From: Fidelibacterota bacterium
Lineage (GTDB): Bacteria > Fidelibacterota > UBA2242 > JAFGTP01
Assembly: GCA_021734005.1 (NCBI GenBank)
Contig: JAIPJV010000001.1
Coordinates: 1-37,877, forward strand
Direction: 5' to 3'
Length of the DNA: 37,877 bases
Below are positions 1-8,066 of the stretch, in pieces. The notes beneath the pieces were generated by a model that had not been told where the DNA came from, searched no databases, and was given only the letters and a program-made list of their open reading frames with translations. The number at the start of each line of letters is the position of its first letter. The first letter of the stretch is position 1. A program made the position numbers and the translations under genes.

Positions 1-295
1 GCATATTTAGTCAATATTGTAATCGACATTCTTTTGGATATCTGTTGTTGTCTATATTTGTAATCAATTGCTCAGAGAAACATTCAAATATATGATAATT
101 TTAGGCAAATTTTATCCGTCATGAATTAATCAGGTTAAAATAGATGGAATAAAAAGTGATATTATATCCTATAAAAATAAAGTAGATAATATTAAATCTA
201 ATATAAAGTTAGGAACCAATAAAATTATAGAAGAATACTCAGGTATACTAGCACAAAAAATATCTACAGAACAAAATATTCTTAAAGAAACGGAA

Positions 296-952
296 ATGAT
301 GATAAACGAAATTAATAGGGAAATAGAAGATGGTTTTAGAAAATTAATAGAAATAGAATTTAAAACGATTGATGGTAATATTGGAAAAATAATAAAATTA
401 AGCCTATCAAATGAAACTCAATCTATTATCCAGATTGCAAAATATTCTTCCAAAGTTGCCACATTCTTAATACTATGGTTGTTAATACCTGGTTCTAGTG
501 CAGCATTAGAAGCAGGGGAAGCCATTGGAGGAGGAGTCGGTACGTTGTTAACTAACATTTCTTCTAATTCCGATAAAGAGGATGTAAAGGAAGGTGAGAA
601 TAAAGACGGGGCTGAAAAAGCGAAAAAGATCAAAAATGCTATAGCAAATTTTATTGAAAAAAATGACATAGTAGGTAAATTAACAAATAATTTAATTTTA
701 CCATTGGCAATAAAAGGTAAAATTAGAAATTCTCTACAAAATCGAATATCCAATAAAATTGAATATATTTTCAAAATAATTGATAATGACGTTAATGAAT
801 TAATAGAAGAAAGATATTTAACAAGACTTGAAGATATTAACAACTCTTTAGAGAAACTTAGACAACAAAGAGATGAAAAGTCTATAAAAGTAGACCAAAA
901 GGCAAAAGAAATAGATAAAAATTTGGGTGAGTTAAAGAATATATCTCTATGA
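296..952 (+). CDS. hypothetical coiled-coil protein with central Gly/Ala-rich hydrophobic hairpin (first gene of dynamin-like cassette)
   Basis: 218-aa ATG ORF. K/E/I/N-rich heptad-like N- and C-terminal parts flank the hydrophobic stretch VATFLILWLLIPGSSAALEAGEAIGGGVGTLL (nt 455-550). It sits 78 bp upstream of the first GTPase gene on the same strand. No family recognised. The frame stays open upstream to nt 125, so the 5' end is uncertain. Confidence 0.6.
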   Translation: MMINEINREIEDGFRKLIEIEFKTIDGNIGKIIKLSLSNETQSIIQIAKYSSKVATFLILWLLIPGSSAALEAGEAIGGGVGTLLTNISSNSDKEDVKEGENKDGAEKAKKIKNAIANFIEKNDIVGKLTNNLILPLAIKGKIRNSLQNRISNKIEYIFKIIDNDVNELIEERYLTRLEDINNSLEKLRQQRDEKSIKVDQKAKEIDKNLGELKNISL

Positions 953-1030
953 CTTCAGATATACTTAGTGACTTGAAATAAAATTTATAATAGTTCAACC
1001 TGAATCATTTTGCAAATCGAGAAGAAAAGT

Positions 1031-2878
1031 ATGAATAAAAAAGTAAATTCCAATAATATATATGATTTTGATAAAATATTAGAATTATTAACAAAATTTA
1101 AAAACTACAGTAAAAATTATAATTTACCCAAAAGGATTGAATTAAATTTTTTAGATAAATTAATCCGTAGATATAAAAAATTATTAAATGAATATAATCA
1201 GATGAAAAAGAGAGGTATTCCTTTAAGAATAGGTATAGTAGGAGAGTTTAGTGCTGGTAAATCTTCATTAATAAATAGTCTAATAGGAGATGAAATTTTA
1301 GGTACTAATATTAATCCAACTACTTCTATAATTTCAAAATTAAAGTATGGAAAAGAGAAAAAATTTGTTGCTGTAAAAGATAGTAAGAAAAAATATATAA
1401 ACCAGGAAACATACGATAAGCTTTCTAGTCATATTAACAAAAATGGCAGTCAGAATAAAAAAATAGATCATTTCGAAATATTTTATCCTAATAAAAAACT
1501 TAAACAATTTGAAATTTTTGATACACCAGGATATAATTCGATAAAAGATAAAGATAATAACCATTTAAAAAAATTTATTAAAGTAATTGATGTTTTTATT
1601 ATTGTAATCAGTGTAGAAAAAGGAATTACTAATAAAGATATAGAATTCCTAAATAATGGATTTGTCGAGAATAAAAAAGTTATTGCAATAATTAATAAAA
1701 CAGACCTTAAGCCCCCAAGTAGTGTAAATAAAATAATGACTGAGATTGGGGGCCAGTTTAATTTTTATAGACTACAAAACTATTCTGCCAAAAAAATACT
1801 TGAGAACATTGAGAGTCAAAAATTTCAATCCAATATGCAGTATCTTAATCTTACCAATATGCTAAAGGAACTTAAAGAAAATTATGAATCTATAAAAGAA
1901 AATACAATTTTAGAAATAAAATCTGAATTAGATAAAGAGTTAAAAACAAAACTCACCAATCTAAATTCAGAATTATTAAAATTATTAGACAATATTAATA
2001 CCAGAGAAAACGTAAAAAAAGATATTTTAAAAAAGGGAAAACAAAAATTAAAAAGTAAATCAACAAGAATTGCAAGAAATATTAGTCGGAATTTATATTC
2101 AAAAATTAAGCATGCTTTTGAAAAATACATTATAATAAAAAAAACTGGAATTTTCCGAAATAAATGTAAAATTGAATTTAAGCACAATAGAGATCGGGTC
2201 AACGAAAAGAAAGAAATAAAAGATATAATTTTAAACATAATTAGTAATTATTATCCAAAGGGGAATAACCCCACTTATAAAATATTTCAAGAATTTATAA
2301 ATGAGTATAATATAGATATAAATTCCAAATTTCAGAGGTCACTTTATACTCCACTTCTTAAAATTTTCGAAACGAAAAATAGGCAATGCATAATTAAAAA
2401 AATTAAATGTATCATTTCTATTCCGGGCAATATGAATCATTCAGAAATATATATGAACTCCACGATCTATTACTGTGGTGTTCACGATTCACTTGATGTA
2501 GAAGAGATTATCAATCAAATTAATTATTCATTCAATATACCTTTAAATGAACAAAAAGTGAAAAACATGAAAAAAGTTAAAGATATAGTTAATTATTTGG
2601 ATAAAGAAAAACAAGTTTCAGGACGCTTCTTCACTAGTAAAAAAATTGAAAGTGGTTATGTTGTGTTACCAGATAAAGTATCAAGTAAGAAGGTGGCAGA
2701 AAGATTTATTAAATTACATATTAATCATATTTTACCAAGAAAAAAAATCCAACAATATATAAAAAAACACTATAACGTTCTATTTGATGAAATTAAGAAG
2801 TGTATTGAAATGGATTTTAAATATAAGAAAAGGGCAATTAAGAAGATAATAAATATCACTAAACAATTTGAGAATTAA
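1031..2878 (+). CDS. dynamin-like large GTPase (bacterial dynamin-like protein, paralogue 1)
   Basis: Ordered GTPase motifs: G1 GEFSAGKS (nt 1241-1264), G3 DTPG (1520-1531), G4 NKTD (1694-1705). About 390 aa of K/E/N/I-rich helical tail follows. The ORF track starts at TTG 1010; ATG 1031 (MNKKVNS...) follows a purine-rich gagaagaaaag stretch and is preferred. Confidence 0.85.
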   Translation: MNKKVNSNNIYDFDKILELLTKFKNYSKNYNLPKRIELNFLDKLIRRYKKLLNEYNQMKKRGIPLRIGIVGEFSAGKSSLINSLIGDEILGTNINPTTSIISKLKYGKEKKFVAVKDSKKKYINQETYDKLSSHINKNGSQNKKIDHFEIFYPNKKLKQFEIFDTPGYNSIKDKDNNHLKKFIKVIDVFIIVISVEKGITNKDIEFLNNGFVENKKVIAIINKTDLKPPSSVNKIMTEIGGQFNFYRLQNYSAKKILENIESQKFQSNMQYLNLTNMLKELKENYESIKENTILEIKSELDKELKTKLTNLNSELLKLLDNINTRENVKKDILKKGKQKLKSKSTRIARNISRNLYSKIKHAFEKYIIIKKTGIFRNKCKIEFKHNRDRVNEKKEIKDIILNIISNYYPKGNNPTYKIFQEFINEYNIDINSKFQRSLYTPLLKIFETKNRQCIIKKIKCIISIPGNMNHSEIYMNSTIYYCGVHDSLDVEEIINQINYSFNIPLNEQKVKNMKKVKDIVNYLDKEKQVSGRFFTSKKIESGYVVLPDKVSSKKVAERFIKLHINHILPRKKIQQYIKKHYNVLFDEIKKCIEMDFKYKKRAIKKIINITKQFEN

Positions 2879-2906
2879 TTATAATCCATAAAAAAATGGG
2901 GAGATT

Positions 2907-4886
2907 ATGAATCGCCAAAATTTAGCGGAACAATATAAAGAAAAGAAAGAACGTTTATTATCTTTGATGGATAAGATGATTAAATTGGATTCTATAGACA
3001 AAGCTGAATCCGATGGAATAATAGATAAAAATCAAATAGATGATATAATAAATGATATAAAACAAGAGAAATTTATAATTAGCATATGTGGGCAGATAAA
3101 ATCAGGTAAATCAACACTATTAAATAATATCATTTTTGAAGGGAGAAAAATATTACCAGTCGATGATACAGTCTGCACTGCATCCTTAACTAGAATTAAA
3201 TATAATAATCGGCCTTATGCTAAAATATATTTCTACAATAGTGAAGAATGGAATAATTTAAAAAACATACAACTCGACGGTAATAAGAATTATTTCAATG
3301 AACATTTTAGGAAAAAATTAAATACTCTTGCAATGAAGGAAGGCATTCAAGCTAAAGAAATAATTAAAGATGAAAGAAAGACAAAAGAAATCAAAATAGA
3401 TGATTTAAAAAATTATATTTCTAAAGAGGGTGATTATACGCTTTTTGTAAAATATGTGGATATTTTTATAAATAATAAAACAATTGAAGATGTTCAAATT
3501 GTGGACACTCCAGGTTTAAATGACTATAATATAATTAGGTCACAAAAAACTCATGACTGGATAAAACGTTCTACAGCGGTAATCATGTTATTCTATGCTG
3601 GTCAACCAATAAGTCAAAATGACTTTAATTTTATTGATAAATATCTGTCCTACATTGATTCTGATAAAATTATATTTGTTTTGAATAAAATAGATACGAT
3701 AGATGACTATGAATCTGTCAAAAACTATATTGAAGTTAACATAAAAAAAAGTGAAGAATTGAGAGATAGAGGTTTGCTTGGTAACGATAGAGAGGTATAT
3801 CCAATTAGCTCCATGGCAGCGAATCTATCTTTGAAAAGTAATCAGAATATTCCTTTTGATAATAATGACAAATTTTACCTTTCTAAAATTGATAATAGTT
3901 TAATAAATAATGACGGAAGAATACATCAACTTATTGTCGCAATTAATAAATATATTATGAATAATAAGGGACAGGCCATACTTGAAAAAGGAGCCCAATA
4001 TATAATAACAACTTACGAGAAACTAATAAAATATAAGAAAAAAATAAGATTACGTCTAGAAGAAGAAAAAAAAGATAAATACAAAGATATTGAGCAGATA
4101 GATAAAAAATTAAACAATATAAACGCTACTATGAAAAATATTAAGAATATAGACAATAATTTCAATGATAAAATTAATAAAGAAACAAGGAAAATAAAGA
4201 ATGGCTTTAGTGAAATTCTTCAACATTGGATCGATGAAGTTAACAAAGATATTAAAAGGTGGATAAAAGATCAAGATATAGAGGAAGCAATTAAGCTTGC
4301 ACTTCGTGAATTAAAAAAGCAAGTTAAAAGGAAAATAACCTATAATATTGAAAATTTTAATACTCGAGAAATTGAAGGGCGAATAGAAGATTTAGTCAAA
4401 GAATATCAAGGAAAGCTGAAAAATGAATCCTATAATAGTTTAAGTGCAAAATATATTAAATGTCTATTACCAGAAGTAAGTATAAACAAACTGATTGAGC
4501 CTATTAAAAATATAGATACTGGCCTTAATAATTATAGAAGCAGATTGTGGGGATTCCTATGGACACAAAAGAAAAAAACAAAAGTCAATATAAAGGAGAA
4601 AGTTGACGATGAATTAGATAAGATTCAACAGCGTATCGAGAACCAGTTAAATTTATATATAAATAATCATCTAATAAATAATTTGAAAGGACTCTCTAAG
4701 GAGTTGAATGATGAACTATCATCTTATAAAAAGATCCTAGAAGAATTTCGTAATAAAAAGAAAAAATCAGTAAATATAGTTGATGACTACCAAGCCAAAA
4801 TCAAAGAAGCAGACAATAATATTAAGTATTTAAAGAAAAAATATAACAAGGCTAAAAAAGAATTATCTGAACTAAATCTTAATTAG
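2907..4886 (+). CDS. dynamin-like large GTPase (bacterial dynamin-like protein, paralogue 2)
   Basis: G1 GQIKSGKS (nt 3090-3113), G3 DTPG (3504-3515), G4 NKID (3684-3695), then a long coiled-coil-like C-terminal half. RBS-like ggggaga lies just upstream. The gap to the previous gene is 28 bp. Confidence 0.85.
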   Translation: MNRQNLAEQYKEKKERLLSLMDKMIKLDSIDKAESDGIIDKNQIDDIINDIKQEKFIISICGQIKSGKSTLLNNIIFEGRKILPVDDTVCTASLTRIKYNNRPYAKIYFYNSEEWNNLKNIQLDGNKNYFNEHFRKKLNTLAMKEGIQAKEIIKDERKTKEIKIDDLKNYISKEGDYTLFVKYVDIFINNKTIEDVQIVDTPGLNDYNIIRSQKTHDWIKRSTAVIMLFYAGQPISQNDFNFIDKYLSYIDSDKIIFVLNKIDTIDDYESVKNYIEVNIKKSEELRDRGLLGNDREVYPISSMAANLSLKSNQNIPFDNNDKFYLSKIDNSLINNDGRIHQLIVAINKYIMNNKGQAILEKGAQYIITTYEKLIKYKKKIRLRLEEEKKDKYKDIEQIDKKLNNINATMKNIKNIDNNFNDKINKETRKIKNGFSEILQHWIDEVNKDIKRWIKDQDIEEAIKLALRELKKQVKRKITYNIENFNTREIEGRIEDLVKEYQGKLKNESYNSLSAKYIKCLLPEVSINKLIEPIKNIDTGLNNYRSRLWGFLWTQKKKTKVNIKEKVDDELDKIQQRIENQLNLYINNHLINNLKGLSKELNDELSSYKKILEEFRNKKKKSVNIVDDYQAKIKEADNNIKYLKKKYNKAKKELSELNLN

Positions 4887-4896
4887 AGGATTTAAT

Positions 4897-5475
4897 ATGA
4901 AGGGACTATTGAAAACAATAATTATATTCATAATTTTTTTAATTATCTCATCTGTGATAGCATTTATTTTTTTTGATAAATTTCGGAACTGGATTTTAGG
5001 CAAGCTTTCTATATTTACAATAAAAAAAGATGACCACGATAATCGTTTGTCTGAAAAAAGTATATACGAAAAGATAAATAGACATTTTAGCGAATTTAAA
5101 AATGACATAAAAAAATACAATCTCTATCAATATTATAGTGAAATATTTAATCTTGATAAATATCGAAAAAAAAATTATCATAGAAAGATAAAAAGAATAA
5201 CTTCTATAAAAGATTTAAATATTGGGTATAATGATAGCAATTCACTAAAAAAAGCACTAAATAAGAAGCTAAAGGCAATCTTCGCTGACAGTAAAAAAAT
5301 GGAATGGTCAGATGCCATCATATTTTTATATAACTGGTTTGAAATTGAGGGGGAAATTGAGGCACTAAACAATATTAAGAAAGATCTCGCAGATGAACAA
5401 AAAGACGACTACAAAGAAAACATAGAAGATCTAAAAAATAGAAAAGAGAATCTTTTAAAGAAACTATCAAACTAA
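4897..5475 (+). CDS. small membrane-anchored coiled-coil protein (last gene of dynamin-like cassette)
   Basis: 192-aa ORF starting 10 bp after the second GTPase gene, with agagga RBS-like sequence upstream. N-terminal transmembrane segment LLKTIIIFIIFLIISSVIAFIFF (nt 4906-4974). The remainder is charged, K/E/N-rich and helical-looking. No family recognised. Confidence 0.65.
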   Translation: MKGLLKTIIIFIIFLIISSVIAFIFFDKFRNWILGKLSIFTIKKDDHDNRLSEKSIYEKINRHFSEFKNDIKKYNLYQYYSEIFNLDKYRKKNYHRKIKRITSIKDLNIGYNDSNSLKKALNKKLKAIFADSKKMEWSDAIIFLYNWFEIEGEIEALNNIKKDLADEQKDDYKENIEDLKNRKENLLKKLSN

Positions 5476-5562
5476 TATCTATTGGACTTTTTCTTTAGCG
5501 AATATCATTATAAAAAAACCCAAAACTAGCACATACAAATATTACCTTATTTACATACTGTC

Positions 5563-5600
5563 TTTTGCAAATTAGAAACCTGGCAGATTGCAAGATAAAA
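5563..5600. repeat. left copy of a 38-bp inverted repeat (partner at 7536-7573)
   Basis: ttttgcaaattagaaacctggcagattgcaagataaaa matches the reverse complement of 7536-7573 at 30 of 38 positions by hand alignment. Two conserved blocks (16 and 12 nt) are separated by 6 variable nt. Confidence 0.7.
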
Positions 5601-5834
5601 ATAGAGCTCCTTACCCAGAAAATATAAGATTCGATATTTTGCATAAATCCTTTTCATAATTCACCTTTTGAAAACCACCTGAAATTTGTTACTATACGTT
5701 GCGCCTAAATTTAAGGTAATTGAGATTATGATGACGAAATTTCAATAATATTGCTTGTTAATTGATTCCAACGTCATATCTACATCTTGTCGGAGAAACC
5801 TATGTAGTTAGAAATATAAATAAGGAATCAGAAA

Positions 5835-6248
5835 ATGCGGAAGGGTATCATAAAAATATTAATAATAACTATTCGTTTCTTTTCCATTAGAAATGCTTCT
5901 GACATGTATTTAACACCTCATTATGGACGAATCTTTAGTTATGATAGAGAATTAAATGATTATTTTACAAAAAATAATTTAAATATATTCGGAGTATCAG
6001 CAGATTTTATATCTAATAAAAACAATATAGGATTATTTGTAGATTTTAGTAGTTTTTCATTCGAAGTAAAAGAAAATATAAATAGATCTAATTTAACAAG
6101 CAATATCGATGGAAAATGGTTTACCTTAGGATTAACCAATCATTTAAATTTTTTTCAACTGCCAATAGAAGTAGTTACAAAAATTGGTCCTACCTTACAT
6201 ATCAATTCCTATACAGAGAAACTAAATTATGATTCATATTTAGCCTAG
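5835..6248 (+). CDS. hypothetical protein, possibly a truncated outer-membrane beta-barrel fragment
   Basis: 137-aa ORF with aagga RBS-like sequence about 9 nt upstream and a signal-like N-terminus. It shows an alternating hydrophobic pattern (GLFVDFSSFSFEV, KWFTLGLTNHL) but lacks the terminal aromatic residue typical of complete barrels. It lies in an otherwise gene-poor AT-rich stretch. Confidence 0.3.
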   Translation: MRKGIIKILIITIRFFSIRNASDMYLTPHYGRIFSYDRELNDYFTKNNLNIFGVSADFISNKNNIGLFVDFSSFSFEVKENINRSNLTSNIDGKWFTLGLTNHLNFFQLPIEVVTKIGPTLHINSYTEKLNYDSYLA

Positions 6249-6383
6249 AAAATTCATTAACATTTCTCATAGAGACCTCCAGGTGGCATTTTCTACCCTC
6301 CGGGCCGAATAATTCCTTCGGAATTTTCCCCGCCTCAGAGAGATCCCTCATGGGAAAAGTGATCGGGATGAATAAATCACGGG

Positions 6384-6506
6384 ATTAACCTTAAAATTAT
6401 GCATAACCTCAAAAAACTCAGTTTTTTCAAAACAGGAGTGCTAAAACTATCATTAATAAAATATTAACCACTATCTTTTGGAGGGTTATGCATAATTTAG
6501 GTTAAT
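6384..6506. repeat. 123-bp long-stem hairpin or MITE-like element with about 26-bp terminal inverted repeats
   Basis: The left arm attaaccttaaaattatgcataacctc (6384-6410) pairs with the right arm gagggttatgcataatttaggttaat (6481-6506): 25 bp with one 2-nt and one 1-nt bulge. Each arm contains the 10-bp palindrome ttatgcataa. The 70-nt loop holds a small aaaaaac/gtttttt hairpin. Confidence 0.7.
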
Positions 6507-6655
6507 ATCAGCTTGAATAAATTAAATAAATTTCGTAATAGAACATATATAGATTTGTATTTTTCACCAATTAATCTAGAGGACTAAACTCAATAAGGTC
6601 AGAGGTTAAGGGGTAATAAGTATGAGAATAATAATAGCATTAGGGGAGGTCTAAC

Positions 6656-6850
6656 ATGGATTTTAAAAAATTATCTATAGGCTTTATTACTATTTTTTTT
6701 ATAACATTAATTGTAAGTAGTGTGGTTACTTATCTGTGGAGTTTATTTTTTCATAATGTTGCAACCATAGATTGGGAAACATCATTCCGTTTTGCAATTA
6801 TTTTTGGTGTTGTTTTTTCAATAATTGATAATAAAGATAAAAAAATTTAG
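6656..6850 (+). CDS. small two-pass membrane protein, hypothetical
   Basis: 64-aa ORF preceded by a strong RBS (aggggaggt, about 7 nt upstream of the ATG). Two hydrophobic segments (IGFITIFFITLIVSSVVTYLWSLFF and FAIIFGVVFSII). A strong terminator lies about 120 nt downstream. Confidence 0.45.
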   Translation: MDFKKLSIGFITIFFITLIVSSVVTYLWSLFFHNVATIDWETSFRFAIIFGVVFSIIDNKDKKI

Positions 6851-6970
6851 CAAGTCCTGAGTGACTAAATTGAATAGAACATTTTTCACCATTATTTTAT
6901 GTCGAAAAATATTGGCCAGGCATAGTAAAAAATCTCCATCCAAAAAATTTTCATAACTCCAATAATAATC

Positions 6971-7005
6971 AAGGCAGGGTTTAGTAACCCTGCCTTTTGT
7001 ATTTT
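6971..7005 (+). terminator. intrinsic (Rho-independent) terminator
   Basis: Perfect 11-bp stem aaggcagggtt / aaccctgcctt (6971-6981 and 6986-6996) with the 4-nt loop tagt, followed by ttgtatttt. Confidence 0.65.
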
Positions 7006-7535
7006 AAGGGGTGGGGATTTTGAAATGATTGATAGGTGTTACCTGAAGTTTAAATTGAAACAGTAAATTTAATCTACATTTTTATAAATAACTTGATATG
7101 AAGAAATATTATAAATTTTGTTAATAACAGTATATTCAATTTCATTGGCCATGAAATCAGGTTGACCAGGTATGCAAAGCCTGATTCCATAGTCAGATTA
7201 CCAAATCCCAAAGGTTAATTTAGATTAGTGATTTAATCTCAGGAAATTATTACTGCCTTAGAGAATCTTACCATCTAATGATTTGCTTTTTTATTTGATA
7301 GATTCACGAGGCGTCTTACTGTTTTAACATATGTGTGCTGGAATACTAGAATATGATCAAATATAACAAGCCATCCGTATAAAATACGAGGACAAGAATT
7401 TGATTAACGAAAATTATAATTACCAGTTGACAACAATTAGAATTCTCTTATCCTCCATGTTTATTTATATGGAGGCAATTTAGTTTATATATAGAAATTT
7501 ATCCTGCAAATTCAGATATCTTCTATGCAAAGGTC

Positions 7536-7573
7536 TCTAATCTTGCAATCTACTGTATTTCTAATTTGGAAAA
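7536..7573. repeat. right copy of the 38-bp inverted repeat (partner at 5563-5600)
   Basis: tctaatcttgcaatctactgtatttctaatttggaaaa. Its reverse complement ttttccaaattagaaatacagtagattgcaagattaga aligns with 5563-5600 (30/38 by hand). Confidence 0.7.
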
Positions 7574-7615
7574 ACACTGATACTAATGGTAAAACTAAAA
7601 AAAATAAAAAAGCTC

Positions 7616-7667
7616 TTGACAAAACTATATAAAAAATGTATGTTTGATTAACGAAAACGATTGTGCA
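7616..7667 (+). promoter_or_regulatory. candidate sigma70-type promoter plus LacI-type operator (upstream duplicate, P1)
   Basis: TTGACA (7616-7621), 17-nt spacer, TATGTT (7639-7644), 8 nt, then GAAAACGATTGTGCA (7653-7667). The layout and spacing match P2 at 7973-8024 exactly. No ORF of 60 aa or more follows before P2. Confidence 0.4.
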
Positions 7668-7972
7668 GAGGAAAAAAAGGTCTCTGAGCACAAAAATACC
7701 CTTGTTTTTGTTTAATAACTAACTTTTTTGCACAGATTTGAAACCAAATTAATTATCAGTCAATGTGACTGACCTGGCGGAGCCATGCCTGGGTTATTTA
7801 TTAATAGTTTTTTACATAATGTAAACAAATGAAAATGACGATGAAATATGAATTTCGTAAAACAAAGTAAAACAATAGTTAAGCAGGGTTAATATTTTGG
7901 TTATAATTTATTGTTGATCAAAAATAAAATGTTATGTTTCAAGTGTTGTTGACATTAAAATAAAAATAACAC

Positions 7973-8024
7973 TTGACAATCTTTTTGATTAATGGTATCT
8001 TTTATGTGTGAAAACGATTGTTCA
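7973..8024 (+). promoter_or_regulatory. candidate promoter plus LacI-type operator directly upstream of the LacI-family gene (P2)
   Basis: TTGACA (7973-7978), 17-nt spacer, TATCTT (7996-8001), 8 nt, then GAAAACGATTGTTCA (8010-8024). The site has outer GAA...TTC symmetry and an AACG core, reminiscent of LacI/PurR/RbsR-type operators. It lies about 45 nt upstream of the regulator start. Confidence 0.5.
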
Positions 8025-8066
8025 AGGTTAATTGAAATTACCCCATAATTTTTGAAAGGTGCTAAT

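Follow-up and report, generated by a model that had tools for sequence, protein, structure and literature searches.

Three dynamin-like GTPases and a small membrane protein: a conserved bacterial operon and its probable incomplete copy in Candidatus Marinimicrobia

Introduction

Bacillus subtilis DynA, a protein made of two fused dynamins, limits phage spread. Most bacterial dynamins described in the literature act in pairs (PMC6104087, PMC4159319). In Campylobacter jejuni the GTPase activities of Cj-DLP1 and Cj-DLP2 depend on one another and the two proteins jointly tether membranes (PMC6104087), and the two-gene Eleos system, in which the P-loops of both dynamins are needed, defends against jumbo phages (bioRxiv 10.1101/2022.05.11.491447). 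Here we analyse a four-gene cassette found close to the start of contig JAIPJV010000001.1 (hereafter the window, i.e. the complete 37,877-bp contig of a Candidatus Marinimicrobia metagenome-assembled genome, MAG). A previous reading of the same DNA, made from the letters alone (hereafter the sequence-only reading), had described the cassette as two dynamin-like GTPases (open reading frames ORF2 and ORF3) bracketed by two dedicated small proteins (ORF1 and ORF4), and had taken the whole for a self-contained module.

What we report as new is a conserved operon of three dynamin paralogues (termed D1, D2 and D3) with its own small membrane partner (S4), present in many phyla, while dynamin pairs and Eleos were already known. 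The cassette of the window is probably a horizontally acquired, incomplete copy of this D1-D2-D3-S4 operon (we would put the probability at about 0.6). In the literature searched, the coverage of which is incomplete, we met with no account of an operon that joins three dynamins to a small membrane partner. The physiological roles of bacterial dynamins and the mechanism of Eleos remain unclear. The operon offers a defined unit for testing: it allows one to ask how heterotypic dynamin complexes assemble beyond a pair, and what a third GTPase and a membrane adaptor contribute.

Results

Conservation of the operon

Loci were fetched with a D3-type protein alignment (80 from reference genomes, 80 from metagenomes, plus the contexts of individual homologues) and their ORFs were classified with locally built D1, D2, D3 and S4 profiles; as all loci were reached through D3, the co-occurrence of S4 is seen from the D3 side. 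The close clade, in which D3 is accompanied by S4 and measures ~640-690 aa, comprised 38 dereplicated loci, 26 of which carry a D1 of at least 500 aa together with D2, D3 and S4, nearly always in that order. Eight others are cut by a contig end, three (from two related Campylobacter MAGs and the locus L106) have a truly fragmented D1, and the remaining one is both rearranged and cut by a contig end. Among the hosts of the unit are Brocadia, Ignavibacteria, Campylobacterota, Aquificota (Desulfurobacteriaceae/Thermovibrio) and Elusimicrobia (Elusimicrobium), and further Kiritimatiellia, Melainabacteria (Gastranaerophilales) and Muiribacterium. Widening the set to the 65 dereplicated loci in which D3 has 4 kb or more of sequence on both sides, we counted three or more dynamin paralogues in 50 and two in 15, and D3 was never found alone (0/65); triple-dynamin clusters are thus the rule around the D3-type dynamin.

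Held against this unit, the window contains D2, D3 and S4 (ORF2, ORF3 and ORF4), and lacks a full-length D1 (550-690 aa, with GTPase domain and paddle). Its copy is therefore probably crippled, or else has shrunk to D2-D3-S4 plus a D1 stub devoid of a GTPase domain. The four-gene unit that the sequence-only reading had proposed survives in the homologous loci as far as ORF4 is concerned; at the position of ORF1 these loci have a full-length dynamin instead, and for this reason the idea of ORF1 as a dedicated small protein fails.

Variants of the unit were also recorded. In four loci from Campylobacter MAGs (L013, L014, L099 and L101) and in L106, D1 comes in two pieces, one of ~112-117 aa with the P-loop and one of ~246-309 aa, and two loci from Campylobacter MAGs (L013 and L015) have an extra membrane protein of 266-271 aa, without profile match, between D2 and D3. 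A bona fide acpP adjoins the operon in the loci from Campylobacter MAGs, probably within a fabG-acpP-fabF cluster (as judged by ORF sizes). One metagenome contig (Ga0207433_10006823, L145) contains tandem triple-dynamin clusters in the order D2-D3-D1-D2-D3-D1-D2, which indicates duplication of the whole unit, and a Candidatus Neomarinimicrobiota MAG contig (JBHPEE010000082.1, L175) has a different multi-dynamin arrangement, which comprises a DUF697-like protein (314 aa), two dynamins (619 and 600 aa), an ORF of 140 aa and one more dynamin that runs off the contig.

ORF1 as the remnant of a third dynamin

ORF1 (296-952, forward strand, 218 aa) belongs to a reading frame that is open from nt 125, right after a TGA at 122-124, and that has no ATG, GTG or TTG between nt 125 and 295; this startless and dynamin-homologous stretch had been overlooked. 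A D1 profile built from 18 full-length first dynamins (571 positions) matches nt 125-952 over its positions 306-568 (E 4.8e-36), and the alignment is colinear from the trunk helices through the conserved hydrophobic paddle to the C-terminal helices. By BLASTP, ORF1 together with its startless extension matches the C-terminal half of D1 from L002 (4.5e-16), L006 (2.4e-14) and L004 (1.7e-9), where D1 is the first of three consecutive dynamin genes near ORF3 homologues. The hydrophobic segment that had been noticed in ORF1 is present (residues 54-72, mean hydropathy 1.67); it corresponds to the hydrophobic paddle of the remnant (455-511, forward strand, VATFLILWLLIPGSSAALE), which aligns to the conserved 'xATFxLxVWLVPG' segment of full-length D1. 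Judged by this homology, ORF1 and nt 125-295 together make up the C-terminal 46% of a third dynamin, D1 (gene remnant 125-952, forward strand, of which ORF1 is the part from the first ATG), the GTPase domain and the first ~305 residues being absent. The assignment to a 3' dynamin remnant rests on the D1 profile match combined with the absence of a GTPase half from nt 1-124. The D1 homology came to light solely through locus-derived sequences and hidden Markov models (HMMs), and when 5.8 billion clustered proteins were queried with ORF1 and its extension in a word-indexed search, the identical protein alone came back, with no stand-alone ORF1-like protein. Ahead of the ATG at 296, 57 codons are free of stops, a run that has, in DNA of ~75% A+T, a probability of about 0.0025 from composition, hence the truncation of D1 would be recent.

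The place of the loss lies beside the contig start. With 18 full-length D1 proteins as queries, tblastn gave no match upstream of nt ~125-140 in any frame, and the sequence left of the breakpoint (1-139) is not dynamin-coding in any frame; on this evidence, a breakpoint at about nt 125-140 cuts off the GTPase half of D1. The sole other public contig with the cassette genes (Logan assembly of SRR12088346, L001) is identical to nt 110-5662, so that the two contigs start at nt 110 (Logan) and nt 1 (MAG). The Logan contig ends just outside the cassette on either side and the MAG contig continues rightward; since the former stops just beyond the cassette at both ends, the cassette appears as a discrete unit in the k=31 assembly graph. 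An exact-match search with nt 66-95 in the JGI metagenome collection returned 0 matches, and nt 1-139 have no repeat within the window. Possibly these 139 nt are the edge of an element that is multi-copy or varies between strains, and that brings both assemblies to a halt.

The two GTPases

That ORF2 and ORF3 are dynamin-like GTPases resembling a heterotypic pair was borne out, and the positions of the GTPase motifs proved exact by arithmetic on the translations. ORF2 (1031-2878, forward strand, 615 aa counted from the ATG, with an upstream TTG at 1010) carries GEFSAGKS (G1, G71-S78, nt 1241-1264), DTPG (G3, D164-G167, nt 1520-1531) and NKTD (G4, N222-D225, nt 1694-1705). ORF3 (2907-4886, forward strand, 659 aa) has GQIKSGKS (G1, G62-S69, nt 3090-3113), DTPG (G3, D200-G203, nt 3504-3515) and NKID (G4, N260-D263, nt 3684-3695), and in both proteins the motifs fall on alignment columns that are invariant, or nearly so, within the family. 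Against the Dynamin_N model (PF00350, gathering cut-off 27 bits) ORF2 scores 91.1 bits (E 1.1e-25) and ORF3 78.7 bits (E 6.6e-22), matches that are therefore far beyond chance.

ORF3 is a D3-type dynamin of the BDLP1/Cj-DLP1 kind: it matches D3 orthologues at 1e-80 to 1e-101 and C. jejuni DLP1 (5OWV_A) at 2.6e-12 (residues 41-618 against 148-700). The D3 profile aligns with 5OWV_A at 8e-40 over the full length save the N-terminal assembly domain of DLP1 (the alignment starts at DLP1 residue 127), and ORF3 has only ~40 residues ahead of the region that is aligned from DLP1 residue 148. No strongly hydrophobic segment occurs in ORF3 (maximum 0.74). When plasmid and phage sequences were searched by tblastn with ORF3, matches were limited to the G domain and full-length relatives were not found.

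The closest matches of ORF2 are D2 orthologues (4.6e-29 and 1.6e-28), and in the PDB it matches Nostoc BDLP (6e-10) and C. jejuni DLP2 (6.7e-7, residues 65-426 against DLP2 65-427); the D2 profile aligns with C. jejuni DLP2 (5OWV_C) at 7.4e-25 over its full length. By these alignments ORF2 and ORF3 both have a helical neck and trunk homologous to those of bacterial dynamins with solved structures.

An acyl-carrier-protein-like domain in ORF2

Within ORF2, residues 452-527 (2384-2611, forward strand) resemble an acyl carrier protein (ACP). NCBIfam ACP models match the segment significantly and near full length, with E-values of 9e-8 to 1.3e-7, at scores (31.6-31.9 bits) that stay under their curated cut-offs (66-71 bits), and a PDB search with residues 434-540 retrieved solved ACPs exclusively (32 distinct ones, best 2.1e-5). 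In the stretch HDSLDVEEII, Ser487 (of 'DSLD', nt 2489-2491) aligns with the attachment serine that opens helix II in ACPs, with the subsequent acidic helix in register. The serine of the DSL motif in ACPs bears 4'-phosphopantetheine. When ORF2 is aligned to the D1 profile, the ACP-like segment falls on positions ~405-480, that is on the paddle, and by colinearity (ORF2 residue 426 corresponding to DLP2 residue 427) it lies beside the lipid-binding tip of DLP2. The likeness to ACPs thus runs from end to end, DSLD included; unlike them, the domain of ORF2 is embedded in a dynamin stalk.

The ACP-like domain was absent from the 19 other D2 orthologues scanned, from all ~170 loci fetched up to that scan, and from the best 150 of 9,292 relatives that were retrieved when 1.84 billion representative proteins were searched exhaustively; not one of these 150 matches the C-terminal half of ORF2. 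It is accordingly a unique, single case among the sequences scanned, as far as sequence comparison can tell. Genes for fatty-acid or polyketide synthesis or for a phosphopantetheinyl transferase were not found near ORF2. We considered a compositional artefact and rejected it, given that the end-to-end alignments come from several independent ACP models as well as from 32 solved ACPs, that DSLD is in register and that no other fold was matched. Two structure predictions were set aside: AlphaFold2 of ORF2 (17-sequence alignment) reached a predicted local distance difference test score (pLDDT) of 57, with the C-terminal half below 50, and AlphaFold of the isolated segment (single sequence) gave a pLDDT of 51 with implausible strands. 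That an acylated Ser487 tip would act as a covalent lipid anchor is attractive, and is entirely speculative; if the domain is modified, it would link a dynamin to lipid in a novel manner.

ORF4, a dedicated membrane partner

Unlike ORF1, ORF4 fits the role of dedicated small protein that had been proposed for both. It starts 10 nt past ORF3 (4897-5475, forward strand, 192 aa) and is matched by the S4 HMM over positions 1-187 of 187 (E 1.1e-26). Its hydrophobic segment, also noticed before, is an N-terminal transmembrane helix (residues 8-26, nt 4918-4974, hydropathy 3.3), which is followed by a helical domain of ~150 aa. S4 proteins have in common such an N-terminal transmembrane helix and a helical domain of ~130-150 residues, and in the close clade S4 always lies directly 3' of D3. 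Positive charges are more numerous after the transmembrane helix than before it, so that under the positive-inside rule the helical domain is predicted to be cytoplasmic. Neither S4 in general nor ORF4 in particular has a Pfam, NCBIfam, PADLOC or PDB match. Taken together, the profile match and the gene order assign ORF4 to a putative, unannotated family of single-pass membrane proteins, the dedicated partner of the D3-type dynamin.

Layout, base composition and surroundings

The coordinates of the four ORFs, their common strand and the gaps between them (78, 28 and 10 nt, in order) are exactly as first read. A Shine-Dalgarno-like stretch had been claimed ahead of each ORF; it is clear for ORF3 (GGGGAG) and ORF4 (AGAGGA), moderate for ORF2 and weak for ORF1. 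The AT-rich and foreign look of the segment is likewise real: guanine-cytosine (GC) content is 22-29% in the first ~8 kb and 22-27% in the cassette itself, and rises to 32-40% (mostly 34-40%) in the remaining window, and it is because of the contrast between 22-27% and 34-40% elsewhere on the contig that we consider the cassette to be of foreign origin. A promoter scan of the window was uninformative (66 matches against 58.6 expected in such AT-rich DNA), and scans of the window for tRNA genes and Rfam families found none.

Directly past the cassette, an imperfect 34-nt inverted repeat (82% complementary, arms at 5563-5596 and 7540-7573) flanks ~2 kb of AT-rich, gene-poor sequence, in a region (5476-8051) that contains two small ORFs without annotation (137 aa at 5835-6248 and a hydrophobic one of 64 aa at 6656-6850) as well as a strong terminator-like hairpin, bidirectional, at 6971-6996. 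The stretch between the arms could be the remnant of a mobile element. Further to the right, positions 8052-37606 form a same-strand cluster that resembles those for polysaccharide utilisation, with a LacI regulator, a sugar ABC transporter, a GWxTD protein, a FadL-like porin, a protein sorted by the type IX secretion system, a TonB-dependent receptor and a GH106 rhamnosidase.

Triple-dynamin operons without S4

Firmicutes, Fusobacterium, Veillonella, Brachyspira and Escherichia coli IncF plasmids have the dynamin trio as D1-D3-D2 (the usual order) or as D1-D2-X-D3, with a protein of ~830-1,050 aa in the place of S4. These operons share with the unit the same three paralogue types (D1-like with paddle, D3-like and D2-like) on one strand; they differ from it in that their D3 is longer (700-780 aa), their D2 shorter (~425 aa), the order usually D1-D3-D2 and S4 replaced by the ~830-1,050-aa protein. 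On the E. coli IncF plasmid NZ_CP148279.1 (44300-51888, L174), a run of three genes annotated as 'dynamin family protein' (563, 724 and 405 aa) is followed by a gene for an 829-aa 'CFI-box-CTERM domain-containing protein', and the products score weakly against the Eleos models. The D1-D3-D2-X layout of this plasmid locus recurs in Veillonella, Fusobacterium and Lachnospiraceae. A literature search (of incomplete coverage) on triple-dynamin operons and 'CFI-box-CTERM' yielded nothing relevant, and the plasmid operon is apparently an uncharacterised yet tractable relative.

Discussion

Should ORF1 be a genuine separate 'paddle-only' subunit, translated from the ATG at 296 within a self-contained four-gene module, one would expect what is in part seen: the D1 paddle and C-terminal helices are kept complete and free of internal stops, there is an ATG with a weak purine-rich stretch upstream, ORF2-4 are intact, and split dynamins do occur, both as LeoC/LeoB (PMC4159319) and as the two-ORF D1 of the Campylobacter and L106 loci. 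We nevertheless hold this to be improbable, for the homology to D1 runs 57 startless codons upstream of that ATG (the mark of a truncated gene), the 5.8 billion clustered proteins contain only the identical copy, 26 of the 38 related loci have a dynamin of at least 500 aa at the same position, and the known splits keep their halves adjacent, whereas the 124 nt that precede the remnant contain no G-domain half. A less remote alternative, rather unlikely all the same, is that the 5' half of D1 lies on another contig, either because a multi-copy element such as an insertion sequence (IS) interrupts the gene or because of an assembly break; in the case of a plain break, the genome could have a complete D1-D2-D3-S4 operon. 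Both assemblies end by the breakpoint (nt 110 and nt 1), and if the largest k-mers were 31 and 141, the two starts would lie k-1 bases upstream of nt ~140, which is the onset of D1 homology; such a pattern is expected where a unique region meets multi-copy sequence or an IS end, and the stop-free remnant (p about 0.0025) points to a very recent event. Yet this k-mer argument rests on assumed assembler settings, nt 66-95 have no copy in the JGI metagenomes and nt 1-139 are unrepeated in the window. Moreover, nt 110-139, common to both assemblies, hold the in-frame TGA (122-124) and no D1 homology, which makes a simple mis-join of an intact D1 unlikely, and an IS insertion would inactivate D1 all the same.

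Two further alternatives concern what the operon is for and where it belongs. It may be a housekeeping membrane-remodelling machine (for division, vesicles, envelope biogenesis or routine repair) with no phage-specific task, a possibility that deserves to be taken seriously even if we think it unlikely: many flanking genes are metabolic (e.g., those for PdxJ, glutamine synthetase and aminotransferases, or fabG-acpP-fabF), the closest solved relatives (Cj-DLP1/2, BDLP1 and mitofusins) are fusion and tethering proteins, and Streptomyces DynA/B take part in division and LeoABC in vesicle release (PMC6104087, PMC4159319). It is at odds with the patchy distribution over very distant phyla, the atypical GC of the copy in the window, the decay of D1 in several lineages, the variable neighbours (integrase, toxin and defence-candidate genes among them) and the match of Eleos models to D1 and D3. 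Nor does the cassette pass easily for a divergent two-gene Eleos anti-phage system (LeoBC plus LeoA). The kinship with LeoA/LeoBC-type systems that the sequence-only reading had put forward is real: the PADLOC LeoBC model matches ORF3 over nearly its whole length (1.4e-22, 78.6 bits, residues 24-640, model positions 63-596 of 601, significant if low in score), and LeoA matches ORF2 at 9.6e-9 and full-length D1 relatives at 1e-15 to 1e-18. But these scores are low (17-88 bits) for models of ~600 residues, the LeoA match covers only residues 1-87 of ORF2, and the sequence of the LeoA crystal structure (4AUR) gives marginal matches confined to the G domain (D1 1.9e-5, D2 2.5e-9), with Cj-DLP1/2 and BDLP1 much closer (the D1 profile matches DLP1, Nostoc BDLP1 and mitofusins at about 1e-19 to 1e-21). 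As the unit consists of three dynamins plus an S4 that matches no PADLOC model, against two genes in Eleos, canonical Eleos membership was rejected on gene content and weak scores; it strikes us as very unlikely, and the claim that no described system matches gene for gene holds.

The reading that we prefer, an acquired and incomplete copy of a conserved three-dynamin operon, can be extended to how the intact relatives might work. D1, D2 and D3 would assemble on the cytoplasmic face of the inner membrane as a heterotypic dynamin complex, with the hydrophobic paddle of D1 inserting into the membrane and S4 anchoring or recruiting the complex by means of the membrane-spanning helix and the helical domain in the cytoplasm. 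GTPase activation would be mutual between D2 and D3, over a G-domain interface as in Cj-DLP1/2, and GTP-dependent tethering, fusion or sealing would protect a damaged membrane. By analogy with DynA and Eleos, an accessory stress or anti-phage function would be the most plausible one. We reason that the operon is possibly an accessory, exchangeable module, perhaps a defensive one, its accessory role being suggested by the atypical GC, the patchy distribution over distant phyla, the decay of D1, the variable neighbours and the Eleos kinship. The neighbours were assessed in 120 flanking ORFs of the 38 dereplicated S4-clade loci, where PDC-S01 (i.e. AAA_14 + DUF4143) was matched four times, PD-T4-6 twice (by kinases), WYL twice and few other defence candidates besides, most of the ORFs being unrelated or of housekeeping type; DUF932 proteins are also among the flanks. 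One locus (L004, 7658-9629) has a phage-type integrase and an ApeA-NTD/HEPN protein and another (L090, 185-499) a ParE toxin gene. Also in favour of an accessory role, a scan of viral contigs did not find the dynamin family of the unit.

A number of observations weigh against this picture. ORF2, ORF3 and ORF4 are free of frameshifts and stops, so the cassette may still work without a complete D1, and the 5' half of D1 may lie in another part of the genome. The mechanism, like the defence role, is drawn by analogy, and the structure predictions contribute nothing, being of low confidence (pLDDT below 55 in the ACP-like region). D3 has no counterpart of the N-terminal domain by which Cj-DLP1 binds DLP2, and its mode of assembly may for that reason differ from that of Cj-DLP1/2. 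The flanks are heterogeneous and often housekeeping, without a defence family that is consistently linked, and the right flank of the window is a sugar-utilisation cluster.

A bolder and quite doubtful proposal is that D1-D2-D3-S4 is a distinct membrane-defence machine, unlike the two-gene Eleos, in which the D2 of Marinimicrobia has had its paddle swapped for a phosphopantetheinylatable ACP serving as anchor or sensor. If this were true, three paralogues and a dedicated transmembrane adaptor would act as a single heterotypic complex, sealing or remodelling the cytoplasmic membrane under phage or envelope attack, and the acyl chain on Ser487 would be a covalent, regulatable lipid anchor or sensor, a coupling of dynamin to membrane not seen before. 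The copy in the window, degraded as it is, serves as a pointer to the family; because its D1 is truncated it is not the best experimental object, and its relatives are better subjects.

Comparison with described systems

One of the closest described counterparts is C. jejuni DLP1/DLP2 (Cj0411/Cj0412; 5OWV, 5OXF). D3 corresponds to DLP1 (8e-40) and D2 to DLP2 (7.4e-25), the two genes are adjacent on one strand, all GTPase motifs are present, and by analogy mutual GTPase activation and membrane tethering would be expected of D2 and D3. The unit differs in adding a third dynamin (D1) and the membrane protein S4, in a D3 devoid of the 119-residue N-terminal assembly domain with which DLP1 binds DLP2, in its gene order (D2 then D3, as against dlp1 then dlp2), in having no HcpA-like third gene and, in the window, in the tip of ORF2, which is ACP-like in place of the FVLF lipid-binding loop.

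With Eleos and the LeoABC proteins of enterotoxigenic E. coli the unit shares an operon of consecutive dynamin-like GTPases (LeoBC resembling D3 and LeoA resembling D1), the character of an accessory, patchily distributed module, and a precedent for split dynamin genes. It departs from Eleos by its three dynamins and S4 where Eleos has two genes, the similarity being weak (at most 88 bits), and the LeoA-like D1 of the window has lost a GTPase domain that is essential in Eleos. B. subtilis DynA, Nostoc BDLP1/BDLP2 and Mycobacterium IniA/IniC are multi-dynamin machines for GTP-dependent membrane fusion or repair in which only one module binds the membrane via a hydrophobic paddle, and in the unit, too, D1 has a paddle and D3 is without a strongly hydrophobic segment; in contrast to them, the unit is made of separate polypeptides, comprises three paralogues and has a dedicated transmembrane partner, and the sequence similarity is mainly confined to the G domain. 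From these sequence comparisons, the D1-D2-D3-S4 family is best placed as a relative of Eleos and of Cj-DLP1/2 with a gene complement different from both.

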